The notes beneath the pieces are model-generated. The model was not told where the DNA came from, ran no database searches, and saw only the letters and a list, made by a program, of their open reading frames with translations. From assembly GCA_016235455.1 (NCBI GenBank), contig JACRKZ010000156.1, positions 1-52,903 of the forward strand: a DNA stretch of 52,903 nt, in the 5' to 3' direction. The position numbers and the translations under genes are program-made. Source of the stretch: Armatimonadota bacterium (GTDB taxonomy: Bacteria; Armatimonadota; UBA10988). Below, in pieces: positions 15,745 through 20,910 of the stretch; position 1 is the stretch's first letter, and every line of letters starts with the position of its first letter.

Positions 15745-17928
15745 TCACGGCGTCGCGCGATACACGCTCAGTTCAAAGATCGACCAGTGATAGGTCGGAT
15801 TGGTGCCGGTCTGCGTGATGCGCAGGTAGCGCGCGGTCTGCGGCGCGAAGGTGATGGTCGTGATGCCCAGCGCGCCCCGGCCGGTGGCCACCGGCTGGCC
15901 CCAGGTCGTGCCGTCGTCCGAGAGGGTCACGGCGTACTCGGTGGGCGAGTCCCACAGCGCCCAGGTGTTGTCGAGCACGACCTTGTCGAACGTCTGGCGG
16001 TGGAGCATATCCACCTGGAACCACTGGCCGGGGTACTGGGTCCGGGTCATATCGCGCCAGCCGGTCCAGTAGTCGCCGTCCAGCGCGTTCGCCGCGGGCA
16101 CCTTGATGGGGATCTTGGCGCCGCTGAACAGGAACTCGCCGTCCGGCACCGAGGCCGATGCCACCCAACCACGCTTGTCGAGCGCCACCTCGGCGCGCGG
16201 CTTGGGTCGTGGCGCCTTGGGCGAGTCGAGCGGCACCACGCCGCGTCCCACCAGGTGCCAGGTGCCCGGCCGCAGGCGGAACTTGACATAGCCGTCCTGC
16301 TCGCCGATCCACGACAGGCCCGGCACCACGTCGTGGTAGCCGCCGTTCCACACCGTCTGGCCGTTGGCCAGGATGGCGTTGAGCCGCGTGAACGAGCGCC
16401 GCGGCAGCCCCACCACCGCCGTGGTGCCCGGCGGCGAGATGACGCTCAGGGCATACTCGGTCCCGCTCTTGCGGATCTCGACCGTCACGGGACCTTTGAC
16501 CGTGGGCACCGTGGTGTGCAGGTTGGTCAGGAAGGCCTCCTGGGGCAACACCTGGAAGGTCGACCAGCCCGGCTCGATGGGCCGCACGCCGACGGTGTTC
16601 TGGCCGAGGACGACCGCCGGCGGGTTCCAGCCGTGGTTGAGCGATGACGCGTCGTCGAACGCGTTCAGCCACGAGGCCCACCAGCGGTCGTAGTGTTCCC
16701 ACAGCGTGGTCTGGGGGGCGTCGATCATGGTGCGGTAGCGGGTCACCATGCGCAGCAGCGCCTGGTCGGGCCGGCCCATGCGGCATAGCGCTTCGAACAC
16801 CCAACGGTCGAAGAAGCAACTGGCGTTGGTGGTCCGGCTCAGCACGTCGGTCCAGATGGCATCCCACTTGCTCTCGTCGGCCAGCCCAGCGTTGACGGCC
16901 ATGGCGTTGGCCCGGTCGTCGGGCGCCGCCACGTCGGCCGACTGGTAGTAGCGCCCGCGCCAGAAGCGCTGGTCGAAGGTGCGGCGGACCTCGTCGCGCT
17001 TGGCGTCGATCAGCGCCAAGTCGGCCTGATGGCCGGTGGCCAGGGCCATCTGGCGCAGTGTCCCCAGGTCGATGTACCAGAAGCAGGTCTCGATGACGCT
17101 GGTGTCCTTGCTGTCTTTGCCCCAGTCGTACCAGGTGTTCTTGTGGCCGAACTGGTAGGTCTCCAGCAGGAAGGTCTTCGTCGCGTCGTAGACGGCGGCG
17201 ATGGACGCCAGGTCGCCCGAGTGCAGGTAGTAGAACCACAGGCCATACTCGCCCAGGAACTCGAGGTGCTGGCCGGGATAGAACTTGGGTTGGAGCTGGC
17301 GTGTCACCAGGTCCTTGGCCAGGGCGTGGGCGCGCTGGTCGAAGACATAGAAGCACTGGTTGAGCTCGGGCGTGCCATCGCCCCAGAAGCCGACGCGCTC
17401 GCGGTCGGGGCAGTCGTAGAAGTGGTCGCGCATGCACAGATACGCGGTGCGCGCGGCCTTGCGCCAGAGGATGTTGAAGTCCTCGTCGTTGCACCAGAAC
17501 GAGCCGGCGACGCTCGTGTCGTAGCCGGTTTCGCGGTACCGGACAGCCCGCACCCCTACTCCCGCGGGGATGGTGTAGACGGCGCCCTCGCCGCTGACCC
17601 AGTTCTTGGCCTCGTAGACGCGCTTGCCGTCCACGGTGTCCTGGGTCTCGGTCGGCGTCAGGTAGAGCACCAGCGGATTGCTGGAATTGAAGGTCAGCGT
17701 CTTGCCCGCGGGCGCATCCACCTCGATCCAAGGCTGGAATTGGCAGTTGTAGGGCAGAGCGCAGACCAGACGCCAGGGCTTCTCCTCGGCATGGGGCAGG
17801 TCTTCAGAAACCCGCACGTAGTCCTTCAGGCCATAGTCGCGGATGGGCATGGCGGTCCTCGCTGGTCCGGCGGCGAGGACCGCCACGATGGCGCACAACA
17901 CGGCTCGCAGGGTCTGGCGGCGCGGCAT
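15745..17928 (-). CDS. GH78 alpha-L-rhamnosidase-like protein with C-terminal F5/8 (discoidin) domain
   Basis: Signal peptide; DCPDRERVGFWGD; TTLWEH; SLNHGW; C-terminal QWFQVDM...ARYLRITQTG...WSIFE. Confidence 0.85.
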   Translation of the reverse strand: MPRRQTLRAVLCAIVAVLAAGPARTAMPIRDYGLKDYVRVSEDLPHAEEKPWRLVCALPYNCQFQPWIEVDAPAGKTLTFNSSNPLVLYLTPTETQDTVDGKRVYEAKNWVSGEGAVYTIPAGVGVRAVRYRETGYDTSVAGSFWCNDEDFNILWRKAARTAYLCMRDHFYDCPDRERVGFWGDGTPELNQCFYVFDQRAHALAKDLVTRQLQPKFYPGQHLEFLGEYGLWFYYLHSGDLASIAAVYDATKTFLLETYQFGHKNTWYDWGKDSKDTSVIETCFWYIDLGTLRQMALATGHQADLALIDAKRDEVRRTFDQRFWRGRYYQSADVAAPDDRANAMAVNAGLADESKWDAIWTDVLSRTTNASCFFDRWVFEALCRMGRPDQALLRMVTRYRTMIDAPQTTLWEHYDRWWASWLNAFDDASSLNHGWNPPAVVLGQNTVGVRPIEPGWSTFQVLPQEAFLTNLHTTVPTVKGPVTVEIRKSGTEYALSVISPPGTTAVVGLPRRSFTRLNAILANGQTVWNGGYHDVVPGLSWIGEQDGYVKFRLRPGTWHLVGRGVVPLDSPKAPRPKPRAEVALDKRGWVASASVPDGEFLFSGAKIPIKVPAANALDGDYWTGWRDMTRTQYPGQWFQVDMLHRQTFDKVVLDNTWALWDSPTEYAVTLSDDGTTWGQPVATGRGALGITTITFAPQTARYLRITQTGTNPTYHWSIFELSVYRATP

Positions 17929-18003
17929 GGCGGCTCCCCGGTTTGGGGCGGTCTGTTCGCCGAGGTCGGAGCGCCTCCTTTGCCGCGGTTGGTGTCACCG
18001 GCC

Positions 18004-18250
18004 TCACTCCCTGAAAGTAGTCGGCCCGCTGGCTACCGTCGAAAGCGGCCCGAGGTCAGGCAGCACCGGCCGAAAGCGGCGGCCCGACCCGCACGGGCAA
18101 GGGTCGCGGCGGCCGAGCTTCTCGCTCAGTTCTTTGTCGCCATGGACCACGCGCGCACCGCGCATGACGCGTGCTTCGGACGGGAAGCCCTTACGGCGCT
18201 TGCTCATTGGCTCGAAAGCCCAGTTCGTCGTACCGTGGTTGGCGTGACAT
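18004..18250 (-). CDS. Small SEC-C motif (Zn-binding) protein interrupted by four +1 frameshifts at TTTC; 80 aa if recoded
   Basis: AAGGAGGT RBS 5 nt before ATG 18250; [15 protein letters not shown]; the closing CC of the SEC-C motif lies in the +1 frame; length 247 nt = 81 codons + 4. Confidence 0.8.
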
Positions 18251-18297
18251 AGCGCACCTCCTTGGCCGGAGGCTGTATCGCGCCACCGCGGCTGGTG

Positions 18298-19862
18298 CTA
18301 AGGCGCGGCCAGCGTCGGCACGCCCTGGTCGTCCACGGTGATCTCGCCCAGCAGCACGCGCCGGTCGCCTTCGTCGCTGTCGGGTCGCAGGCGCTCGTTG
18401 GGCTGGCCCAGCAGTGCCGGGCGGAACAGCCCGGTGGCCAGCCGGTACGACTTGCCCTTGGCCTCCGGCGGTACGACGAAGCGGAGCGTCACCGCCACGT
18501 CGCCGGGCTGGGCCAGACTCGGGTTGCCCACGGGATGGCCCTGGAAGGCGATCTTGCCGTCGGCGGCATCGCAATGCAGGAAGGGCATGGCGTCGCCCGC
18601 GCCGTTGTGGAGGTCTGGTTGTAAGCCAGCGGATAGCTGCGCTTCGAGCGCTTGGTCAGCACCTGATCGGCCGGGCCGACGGGCAGGTCCCGCGCGTTGA
18701 GCGCGTCGTCGACGAACACCCCCACGACGCCGCCCTTGGCATCGGTCAGCGTGAGGCAGGGGTAACCGCCGGCATAGCACGGCGCCACGCCGGCATTGCG
18801 CCATGACCAGTCGACGCTCAGCTCACCACCGAGCTCGATCTGCTGGGGCCAGGTGATGCTCGTCGGCAGCAGGCGATAGCCCATGCGCTTGTTCATCGCG
18901 GCGATCAACGGCCCGCACTCGGCCAGGAACTCGCGCGGCCACCAGTGGATGCTCGCGTAGGAGGCGTGGTATTCCTCCAGCGCCTTGAGGTACAGGCTGC
19001 CATCGCCCCAGTTGCCCCGGTCGCGCGAGCCGCCGTAGTGCTCGCTCTCCAAGATGGTGGGCACCGTCGGCCAGAAGCCCTGGGCCATCTCGGCGTGGAA
19101 GTAGGCGTTCTTGCCCGGCTGCACCAGGATGCTGTCGTCGCGCAGGCCCAGGCCGTGCTCGCGGGCGTAGTCGATGGCCGCGTCGCCCTGGAAGGAGAAG
19201 TCGTCGTTGGCCACCAGCAGCGACTTGCCGAAATGCTTGCGGTACAGGTCTATGTGCCGGATGACTGTTTCGGCGGGGTACTTCATCTGGGTGCTGGCCC
19301 ACAGGTGGCCCTCGCCCCACACGCCGAACGAACCGACATCGACGAACGACACGGCGGGATCGCCGTCGTAACGCTTGGCCAGCGCGGCCAGGAAGCGGTC
19401 GAGCTTGTCCAGGAAGACTGGGTCGTTGTAGTCGGGCTCCCAGTAGGGGCCTTTCTCGTCCACCTTACCGGGCGTGAAGTTGTAGCCCTTGGCGCCGGCC
19501 TTCTGCACCCATTCGGGAGTGGCCCAGCGCGTCCACGACTCGCAGACGCTGATGCGTAGCGCGATCTGCAGGCCCTTGTCGCGCCAGCGCTGCGTGGGCG
19601 CATCGAGCACCGACCAGCAGAACTTGCCTTCCTCGGGCTCCACATAGGACCACGGGATGCGCAGGTAGACGCAGTTCATGCCAGGGAAGTCGTCGACCGT
19701 GTCCGACGGCGCCAGGCGCGAGCCGTAGTTGGTGGGGACGTTGTCGTAGAAGTGCAGCACCCAGCCCATGCCGGGGTTGCGCAGCGCCTCGCCGGTATCG
19801 GCCGGTTGGACCGTCACGCCATCGGCGGCCAGTGCCGCCGCCAGAGCCATCCACAATGCCAT
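18298..19862 (-). CDS. DUF4832-type secreted glycoside hydrolase-like protein with a frame break near 18620 (possible pseudogene)
   Basis: Signal MALWMALAAALAA; NPGMGW, YLRIPWSYVEPEEG, GSFGVWGEGH, GLRDDSI, MGYRL motifs; coding-like composition switches from ORF 18489-19955 to ORF 18298-18804 around 18620. Confidence 0.7.
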
Positions 19863-19929
19863 CGTCTGCCTCACGCCGAGCGCGTTCGTGGTGGGGTCCC
19901 GCGTTCCTTCGTTGTGATACCCTGTCGGC

Positions 19930-20910
19930 ATGGCAATCTTGGTCACCGGTGGCACCGGTTTCGTGGGCTGGCATGTGGCGCGGCTGCTGACAGAGGCCGG
20001 CGCTAACGTGCGTTGTCTGGTGCGCTCGGGCAGCGATACCTCGCGCCTGGAGCCGCTCGGCGTCGAGCTGGCGGTGGGCGACCTGCGCGATGCCGAGTCG
20101 CTGAGGCGCGCCGCGCGCGGCTGCGCCCAGGTCTATCACGTCGCCGCTGACTACCGGCTGTGGACGCGCGACCCGCACGAGATGTACGCCTCCAATGTCG
20201 ACGGCACGCGCGCGCTGTTGGCTGCCGCCGAGGATGCCGAGCGCATCGTCTACACCTCCAGCGTGGGTTGCCTGGGCTTGCACCATGACGGCACGCCTGC
20301 CGACGAGACGACGCCGGTGAGCCTGAACGACATGGTCGGCCACTACAAGCGCAGCAAGTACCTGGCCGAGGAGGTGGCCCGCGAGCGTGCCGCCGCCGGC
20401 CAGCCGATCGTCATCGTCAACCCGTCCACGCCCATCGGCGAGGCCGATGTGAAGCCGACGCGCACCGGGCAGATCGTCGTCGACTTCCTGCGCGGCAAGA
20501 TGCCCGGGTTCGTCAGCACCGGGCTCAACCTGGTGGACGTGCGCGACGTAGCGGCGGGCCATCTGCTGGCCATGGAGCGCGGTCGCGTCGGTGAACGCTA
20601 CATCCTGGGCCATCGCGACCTGACCCTGGAGCAGATTCTGGCCACGCTGGCCGAACTGACCGGGCTGCCGCGACCGACCTTCCGCGTGCCGTTCGCGCTG
20701 GCCTTTGCCGCCGCCTACGCGGATACGTTCTGGAACGTCGTGGTGCGCCGTCGGCCGCCCAACATCCCGGTGGACGGCGTGCGCATGGCGCGGCACTTCA
20801 TGTACTTCTCGCCGGCCAAGGCGGTGGCCGAGCTGGGCCTGCCGCAGACGCCGGTTGAGGAGCCGCTGGAGCGGGCTGTGGCCTGGTTCCGCGAGCATGG
20901 CTACTGCTAG
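19930..20910 (+). CDS. hpnA: NAD-dependent epimerase/dehydratase, hopanoid-associated HpnA-like
   Basis: ILVTGGTGFVG, HVAADYRLW, YTSSV, YKRSK, VNPSTPIG..D.KPT.TG. Confidence 0.85.
   Translation: MAILVTGGTGFVGWHVARLLTEAGANVRCLVRSGSDTSRLEPLGVELAVGDLRDAESLRRAARGCAQVYHVAADYRLWTRDPHEMYASNVDGTRALLAAAEDAERIVYTSSVGCLGLHHDGTPADETTPVSLNDMVGHYKRSKYLAEEVARERAAAGQPIVIVNPSTPIGEADVKPTRTGQIVVDFLRGKMPGFVSTGLNLVDVRDVAAGHLLAMERGRVGERYILGHRDLTLEQILATLAELTGLPRPTFRVPFALAFAAAYADTFWNVVVRRRPPNIPVDGVRMARHFMYFSPAKAVAELGLPQTPVEEPLERAVAWFREHGYC

Follow-up and report, generated by a model that had tools for sequence, protein, structure and literature searches.

We report that a short stretch of the minus strand of contig JACRKZ010000156.1 (18004–18250), from the metagenome-assembled draft genome of an Armatimonadota bacterium (GCA_016235455.1; 185 contigs, 93% complete), encodes a small SEC-C protein of 80 residues only when four +1 steps are made, each at a Phe codon followed by an extra base. 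Positions are those of the whole stretch analysed, 52,903 nucleotides, which we call the window. Our analysis indicates that this mini-gene is very probably genuine, that it belongs to a widespread family of small SEC-C proteins and that it is expressed via serial programmed +1 ribosomal frameshifting. Among the observations behind this conclusion, an extra base is found at the same codons in 83 of the 85 family loci that were read base by base, and coding selection in these loci follows the shifted frames.

The elements on which the original prediction was built are all present in the window. A Shine–Dalgarno (SD) sequence (AAGGAGGT, 18256–18263) lies five bases 5′ of an ATG (18248–18250) that opens a leader part, and this frame, read without a shift, closes at a TAA (18191–18193) after 19 codons. 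An internal ATG without SD (18205–18207, Met15) starts the listed 67-residue open reading frame (ORF; 18004–18207), which has CPCGSGRRF followed by unrelated residues (RPVLPDL...) and hence half of the motif; this ATG is a possible second entry that would bypass the first site. The recoding rule is the same at all four sites, each TTTC being read as Phe plus one skipped base. The sites are GGC_TTT_C GAG (site 1, 18214–18217, Phe12), CGC_TTT_C GGC (site 2, 18072–18075, Phe59), CGC_TTT_C GAC (site 3, 18041–18044, Phe69) and TAC_TTT_C AGG (site 4, 18013–18016, Phe78), and the next codons in the unshifted frame are CGA, CGG, CGA and CAG, respectively. Beyond an unshifted site 3 the frame reaches a TAG two codons on (…GRF-RR-stop; 18033–18035), and beyond an unshifted site 4 it continues for more than 40 further codons; the final, shifted frame ends at a TGA (18004–18006) after Arg79-Glu80. 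Four skips reproduce exactly the 80-residue protein that had been predicted, with TTTC at four of its five Phe codons and TTC at the fifth (F22).

The second of these sites lies inside the SEC-C metal-binding motif (18060–18099), which is not encoded in one uninterrupted frame, its last two Cys being one base off past the TTTC at 18072–18075. The recoded protein has the full Cys-x-Cys...Cys-Cys/His motif and scores 31.4 bits against Pfam SEC-C (PF02810; cut-off 20.4 bits) over profile positions 1–18 of 19, compared with 22.3 bits over positions 1–13 of 19 for the plain 67-residue ORF, so that the skip does complete the motif as had been claimed. Site 2 of the window can be read in two ways, as TTT_C GGC CGG (F-G-R-C-C), which the original prediction used, or as TTT CGG_C CGG (F-R-R-C-C), which frameshift-aware alignment favours. 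The residue after the site-2 Phe is Lys in 82 of the 85 family loci.

In the mechanism that we propose, translation would start at ATG 18250, downstream of the strong SD. At each Phe site, a P-site tRNA-Phe(GAA) paired with UUU through a G:U wobble would slip +1 onto UUC, gaining a G:C pair, and decoding would then resume in the +1 frame. The full protein, with CPCGSG..F..CC and the conserved DGxxRxxYF-RE tail, would come only from ribosomes that shift at all four sites. A miss at site 1 would give a 19-residue peptide, at site 2 a protein without the last two Cys, at site 3 a stop two codons on and at site 4 a long unrelated tail. As each miss would lead to a dead-end product, the yield should be the product of the four shift frequencies, and this multiplication would either keep the protein very scarce or raise it steeply when ribosomes turn slip-prone. 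A gene of this kind may act as a sensor of decoding fidelity, of tRNA-Phe modification or of ribosome stress. We infer that the place of correction is the ribosome and not the transcript, and the efficiency of the step and any regulatory purpose it may have are to be read in the same way.

The recoded protein was assigned to a family by similarity along its whole length. A search with it returned 1890 database proteins at E<=0.01, with lengths of 44–140 residues, and the top family matches were 60–83% identical over 63–96% of the query. The family consensus aligns with the recoded protein from Phe12 to the end and spans all four junctions; the window protein, aligned to the family over residues 12–79, shares the nearly invariant residues. 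Membership is therefore end to end, from the basic N-terminal region to the DGxxRxxYF-R[ED] tail at the C terminus. The proteins are small (about 65–80 residues) and basic with a SecA-type zinc motif, and are unnamed, some sources using ‘nucleic acid-binding protein’. The family profile matches the zinc-motif chains of SecA and YchJ in the PDB. Outside the SEC-C motif, the N-terminal part and the DGxxRxxYF tail had zero matches in Pfam, NCBIfam or the PDB, and the only matches in NCBIfam and PADLOC were to SEC-C motifs that lie at the termini of unrelated proteins. An AlphaFold2 model from an alignment of 31 natural in-frame relatives (mean predicted local distance difference test score, pLDDT, 61.3; predicted template modelling score 0.41) was too poor for a fold search; the Atlas structure model was poor too (pLDDT 0.41), and its neighbours were other SEC-C proteins only. 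Longer or fused forms were considered and set aside: 172 longer proteins match residues 13–58, have no common second domain and look like over-extended ORF calls. No paralogues of the mini-gene were found in the window’s genome.

Public gene calls bear the imprint of the shift sites. Among the 120 best database clusters of the family (P0002–P0121), 82 terminate exactly at the site-3 Phe and 12 at the site-4 Phe, while eight run into unrelated tails, two continue in frame to ..YF-R[ED] and 16 end otherwise. Gene callers thus cut the family at the shift sites. Some public calls, such as the 67-residue ORF of the window and P0111, cross the out-of-frame stretch and then regain the frame. Among viral sequences, five of 50,697 phage records matched, four of these solely via a YecA motif, and three of 80 kept IMG/VR loci were true family members, the others matching the motif only; the matches of these three, on contigs classed as viral (L111–L113), stop at site 3.

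The relatives were then read at the level of DNA. A scan of species-representative genomes matched at least 600 stretches, 591 of them confirmed relatives, and 85 loci, made up of the window, the orthologues of four related genomes and the best 80 of the at least 591 relatives, were aligned to the family profile with a script permitting one-base skips. The best 80 loci are mostly from Planctomycetota; other labels include Pseudomonadota, Acidobacteriota, Cyanobacteria, Chloroflexota, Thermoleophilia, Verrucomicrobiota and Deinococcales, and there are more. Isolate genomes are also represented (Stieleria magnilauensis TBK1r, Novipirellula sp. SH528, Massilia pinisoli JCM 31316 and Acidobacteriaceae bacterium KBS 96). 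True orthologues, all from the phylum of the window, were found in four of 40 related genomes, each as split matches, and all four need +1 steps at the same codons. In three of them (G026, G002 and G017) sites 1, 2 and 4 consist of TTT plus a pyrimidine (TTT+Y) and carry an extra base, and site 3 is an in-frame Tyr codon. The fourth (G013) has TTTC at sites 2 and 4 only; its site 1 is TTC and its site 3 is TTT-G, both in frame. Where Tyr (TAC or TAT) occupies a site in these orthologues there is no extra base, and at site 2 all four have CGC_TTT_C before AAG-CGC-TGC-TGC.

Across the 85 loci, each site has a recognizable shifted form and, for sites 2–4, an in-frame form. At site 1, a +1 step is clear in 54 loci, five more have a start in both frames, 10–12 have a double step and 14 were left unassigned; none is clearly in frame, the in-frame TTC of G013 being counted among the 14. 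The shifted sequence is mostly TTTC or TTTT, the next codon is GAR in 58 of 59 single-step loci, and across the family TTTY stands directly 5′ of a conserved GAR-CCN-ATG. An SD-ATG lies 27–57 nucleotides 5′ of site 1, in the frame that requires the skip, in 54 of the 85 loci, giving leaders of 9–19 codons. Site 2 is shifted in 14 loci (11 TTTC and three TTTT) and in frame in 71 (60 TTC, nine TTT+A and two other). Site 3 is shifted in 65 loci, 48 with TTTT, nine with TTTC and eight on or near Leu codons, and in frame in 20 (11 TAY, three TTT+G, three TTC and three CAY). Site 4 is shifted in 65 loci (38 TTTT and 27 TTTC) and in frame in 15, with four other and one uncovered. TTT+Y is accordingly the sequence at 14 of 14 site-2, 57 of 65 site-3 and 65 of 65 site-4 shifts, and in-frame versions of the sites are TTC, TTT plus a purine, or TAY. 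Counted per gene, three shifts were the most frequent number (45 loci), followed by two (21 loci), four (11 loci), one (six loci) and none (two loci). One locus (L092, an Acidobacteriaceae metagenome-assembled genome) needs a −1 change between CC and DG after its +1 step at site 2, and could reflect misassembly or the decay of a copy.

These counts modify the original prediction in four ways. It had been expected that TTTC would be retained at the same Phe positions across distant taxa; the positions are indeed shared, and the conserved element is TTT+Y and not TTTC. TTT+T is commoner than TTT+C at sites 3 and 4 in other lineages and puts a stop in the unshifted frame. Because the residues that follow the four Phe in the family are Glu, Lys, Asp and Arg (AGR), the next unshifted codons with TTT+T are UGA, UAA, UGA and UAG at sites 1–4; with TTT+C they are CGA, CAA, CGA and CAG/CCG. 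Secondly, four sites hold for the window and not as a rule of the family, in which the number varies from none to four, or five where site 1 is double. Thirdly, the extra base is mostly on Phe, and a few relatives shift on Leu (CTT_T, CTT_C or CTG_Y). The Leu variants at site 3 are CTG_Y in L089, L091, L102 and L105 and CTT_TGA in L048 and L053, and two Acidobacteria (L058 and L086) have a CTT_C shift five codons before site 3. Fourthly, site 3 is not a shift site in the four same-phylum orthologues, which have Tyr or TTT-G in frame there.

Selection on the shifted frames was apparent at the 3′ end of the gene. For residues 70–77 in the 65 loci shifted at site 3, entropy was 0.72, 0.57 and 1.28 bits at codon positions 1, 2 and 3; the same bases taken in the unshifted reading gave 1.26, 0.72 and 0.57. 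Third-position variation tracks the +1 frame, and coding selection therefore follows the shifted frames. After site 4, in the 65 loci of 85 with TTT+Y, the +1 frame yields a short tail (mostly RE, RD or REKD) whose first residue is Arg, rarely Lys, and which is closed by a stop. The unshifted frame either stops at once or runs into a long unrelated tail. In loci whose site-4 Phe is TTC, the same RE or RD continues in frame. Among the relatives, therefore, both the sites themselves and the coding potential in both frames are conserved, which bears out the expectation that protein conservation would run along the shifted frames.

It could nevertheless be the unshifted products that are real, namely a leader peptide, a protein started at Met15 and truncations at the stop of site 3 or 4, with the shifted tails a rare and incidental isoform. 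The Met15 position is a start codon in 63 of the 85 loci, TTT+T gives a stop right at sites 1, 3 and 4 and hence defined short products, and these are the products that gene callers predict, as in the 82 of 120 best clusters that end at site 3. However, the remaining 22 loci have no start at position 15, and 14 of these have an SD-ATG only in the shift-requiring frame, so that in these 14 the site-1 shift is not replaceable by internal initiation. The leader moreover has a recurrent acidic motif at its end (..[DE][DE]Q.[SC]F), site 2 is inside the zinc motif such that the unshifted form is without two ligand Cys, and the tails past sites 3 and 4 are under the +1-frame coding selection described above. 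We consider this account decidedly unlikely; unshifted products may exist and matter alongside the shifted one.

Frames that change at short T runs in a draft metagenome-assembled genome invite suspicion of a decaying pseudogene or a sequencing artefact, with four chance one-base insertions and no function, and the gene just upstream changes frame too. Homopolymer over-calling, a risk acknowledged in the original prediction, was assessed over 17900–18350 by comparing contigs, not raw reads, of four public runs from two studies (X2, probably the source, and X3 from one study; X4 and X5 from the other). Over the mini-gene these contigs differ by substitutions only, with zero inserted or deleted letters. 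In one X5 contig (92% alike) GTG replaces ATG 18250 and is still a start codon. The extra bases are not assembly errors. Against decay, the same codons carry an extra base in 83 of 85 loci, including the four isolate genomes, the shifted frames are under coding selection, and TTT followed by C or T accounts for 1.3% of Phe codons in the genome (511 of 38718) as opposed to four of five here. A pseudogene or artefact is hardly credible in the face of these results. Phase variation via slipped-strand mispairing was also considered and rejected: it needs three or four short runs to change together, and there was no in-frame allele among the contigs.

The background frequencies come from 2397 ORFs of this genome that are long and confidently coding and together comprise 1.42 million codons; in them, TTT makes up 3050 of the 38718 Phe codons. 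The dicodon TTT_CGA occurs twice in these 1.42 million codons and also twice in the 80-codon mini-gene. A pyrimidine follows in-frame TTT in 16.8% of cases, compared with 28–49% for ten other NNT codons, and this low level looks like a genome-wide avoidance of a shift-prone tetranucleotide. Elsewhere in the window, in-frame TTTC is decoded as triplets (seven cases, 22 ORFs), in agreement with the view that the effect is specific to this gene.

These figures also bear on dedicated four-base decoding, in which UUUY would be read as Phe by a tRNA whose anticodon loop is enlarged, whether this tRNA is encoded as such or arises through damage to and repair of tRNA-Phe. Such decoding would suit the fact that all sites of the window are Phe and that TTTY taken as one step yields the conserved protein, and RNA-ligase and end-healing genes adjoin the mini-gene in a quarter of loci. 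The tRNA set of the genome speaks against it. There are 57 tRNAs, with a single tRNA-Phe(GAA) that has a normal 7-base anticodon loop and A36-A37-A38, and none of the 57 in this 93%-complete genome could decode UUUY as a quadruplet. The genome also has a miaA homologue. UUUY is not a four-base word genome-wide, as in-frame TTTC and TTTT elsewhere keep the frame and the 2397 ORFs contain 511 TTT+Y codons. A family that spans many phyla would need such a tRNA everywhere, and the Leu-codon variants do not fit. We regard four-base decoding as highly improbable. Aragorn did report a tRNA of unidentified type with a four-base anticodon, cgtg (C164:7011–7088), which may be a false call and does not match UUUY. 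With one normal tRNA-Phe(GAA), and with TTTC decoded normally elsewhere, +1 frameshifting on UUU_Y is the best explanation.

Correction of the frame in RNA was weighed as well, whereby polymerase slippage or editing would remove one U per TTTY and the mRNA would then be read normally. The observation that lends itself to this idea is a run of seven T followed by C before Glu13, with the SD-ATG in the third frame, in 12–13 of the 85 loci (L028, L033, L037, L041, L046, L048, L054, L055, L057, L088, L094 and L106), a length at which polymerase slippage is conceivable. On the ribosome, judging from the sequence, the conserved frame at these seven-T sites would be reached via two tandem four-base steps (TTTT, TTTC) or one +2 slip. 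Known bacterial transcriptional slippage requires much longer homopolymers than those found elsewhere, the T runs being three long in the window and three or four long at family sites 2–4, so that only site 1 of these 12–13 loci reaches seven; the CTG_Y and CTT_C sites have no run at all. We know of no U-deletion editing in bacteria. Correction at the level of RNA thus appears very unlikely, and we retain frameshifting on the ribosome as the preferred explanation.

The features of the sites themselves can be set beside those expected of ribosomal frameshifting. All four window sites have UUU_C, a shift-prone P-site codon that permits re-pairing in the +1 frame, and sites 1 and 3 of the window present CGA, which is rare in its genome (3.6 per 1000 codons), as the next unshifted codon. 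Several findings weigh against this interpretation. CGG (18.8 per 1000) and CAG (31.7 per 1000), the codons at window sites 2 and 4, are common, and as a slow A-site codon is lacking at these two sites, four unaided serial shifts should have a very low yield. No stimulator of the prfB type was detected: there is no SD-like or common purine-rich element 5′ of the sites, the preceding codon differing between them, and RNAalifold found no conserved RNA structure in 29 sequences (−0.99 kcal/mol, six pairs). Site 3 is unshifted in all four same-phylum orthologues. An in-frame TTT_C occurs at position 22 in eight of the 60 loci with Phe there, so that TTT_C alone does not force a shift. The CTG_Y form of site 3 (4 of 85 loci) gives a Leu tRNA no possibility of re-pairing in the +1 frame. 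The best-scoring 80 loci under-sample genes shifted at site 2, and there is no RNA among the 20 runs listed for the stretch.

The genes next to the family offer a lead on function. In 15 of 76 loci the next downstream gene on the same strand codes for an enzyme of RNA repair: Hen1 in four (L052, L056, L066 and L081), an RNA ligase (PF09414) in four (L054, L068, L071 and L096), RtcB in three (L031, L070 and L097), a PNK-like AAA_33 kinase in three (L076, L090 and L094) and a Thg1-like protein in one. In L068 the gene order is mini-gene, ligase, kinase, Hen1. By tblastn, an RNA-repair gene was found within 3 kb of fetched sequence in 20 of 85 loci, downstream in 19 of these, and none of these families was among the 25 commonest of 75 upstream neighbours. 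The survey of neighbourhoods for RNA-repair genes that had been suggested with the prediction was thus positive in the relatives and negative in the window itself, in which the neighbours of the mini-gene are glycoside hydrolases; RtcB and a partial Hen1 match sit on other contigs. A link of the family to RNA repair through the neighbouring genes of relatives is, at this stage, a lead only.

We also put forward a tentative, on balance doubtful, model in which the gene would work as a translational fuse that responds when the decoding machinery is damaged, and its zinc-motif protein would act on ribosomes or broken RNA together with the downstream repair enzymes. With three to five independent slips, output would rise with a high power of the slip rate of the cell, and the protein would appear only on global failure of A-site decoding or termination. 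Proposed triggers are cleavage of tRNAs by anticodon nucleases or of 16S rRNA in its decoding centre, insufficient modification of tRNA-Phe and a shortage of release factors; the proposed partners are RtcB, the Rnl-type ligase, the PNK-like kinase, Hen1 and the Thg1-like protein, encoded directly downstream in a quarter of loci.

Directly upstream of the mini-gene in the window is a GH42/DUF4832-like gene (18298–19955, minus strand) that is divided between two frames. A 488-residue ORF (18489–19955) has a tail that is seemingly unrelated, and the last ~110 residues of a 168-residue ORF (18298–18804) are seemingly real. The change of frame (−1 or +2) lies near 18600–18640 and is not at any TTT.

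The family would show that serial recoding can stay stable over long evolutionary times, and it provides a natural system for the study of unaided UUU_Y slippage and of the multiplication of yields across sites. For annotation, it is a case in which gene callers truncate a whole family at its shift sites. If the link to RNA repair holds, reading-frame errors would be tied to the way in which cells sense or repair damaged tRNA and rRNA; the published accounts, in the excerpts consulted, describe sensing of tRNA or rRNA damage only for the RtcR system.

As far as the literature was searched, the kind of event is known and the serial, conserved, multi-phylum arrangement is new. No description of frameshifting in the small SEC-C family was found, in a search that covered RNA-repair surveys and frameshift cluster lists only partly, and the main text of the GeneTack paper (PMC3711429), in the portions consulted, mentions neither SEC-C nor UUU. 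The C-terminal metal-binding domain of SecA and the YchJ/YecA proteins share the SEC-C motif with ..[FY]K.CC, over about 20 residues only, and no frameshift in SEC-C genes of these types was described in the papers found.

Among bacterial chromosomal genes, programmed +1 frameshifting is known chiefly from prfB, with a few other cases that have a single site. The prfB gene has one site, CUU_UGA_C, with an SD-like stimulator three bases upstream, and serves the autoregulation of RF2. The family resembles it in that the P-site tRNA would slip +1 on YUU_Y, in that the unshifted A site holds a stop in the TTT+T variants and may hold a poorly decoded codon in others, and in that both are conserved across phyla; two family loci (L048 and L053) carry CTT_TGA itself at site 3. 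It differs in having one to four (or five) sites in about 80 codons and no SD-like element, in an A site that may hold any of the three stops or sense codons, and in a product that is not a release factor.

Bacterial UUU_Y sites, such as that of the Yersinia YopN-TyeA fusion and those of Escherichia coli test genes, share the tetranucleotide and the direction of the shift. A passage of one study describes UUU_Ynn as especially prone to +1 shifting in bacteria (PMC5009743), and a 2025 preprint places TTT_C and CTT_T with the +1 tetramers that performed best in a screen based on E. coli (bioRxiv 10.1101/2025.10.02.679949). The known sites of this type are single, and either low-level or incidental or the source of a second product beside the main one, whereas in the family the shift is obligatory for the only conserved product, serial and at fixed residues. 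Similarly, the +1 site of influenza PA-X is UCC_UUU_CGU, according to an excerpt of its description (PMC3498833), and TCC_TTT_CGA is found at site 1 in 15 family loci, where the E and P sites hold the same codons as in PA-X and the A site holds a CGN codon for Arg. The corresponding sequences of the window are GGC_UUU_CGA and CGC_UUU_CGA. PA-X is, from the same excerpt, eukaryotic viral with one site and a low-frequency, minor second product, in contrast to a bacterial, chromosomal family with several shifts for its main product.

A parallel to the serial layout of the family lies in organelles and ciliates: Perkinsus mitochondria and Euplotes nuclear genes likewise have several obligatory +1 shifts per coding sequence, at a fixed codon type. 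In these organisms, however, shifting is a genome-wide trait that goes with altered termination or decoding, whereas here it is confined to one small gene family within bacterial genomes in whose other genes this tetranucleotide is read normally.

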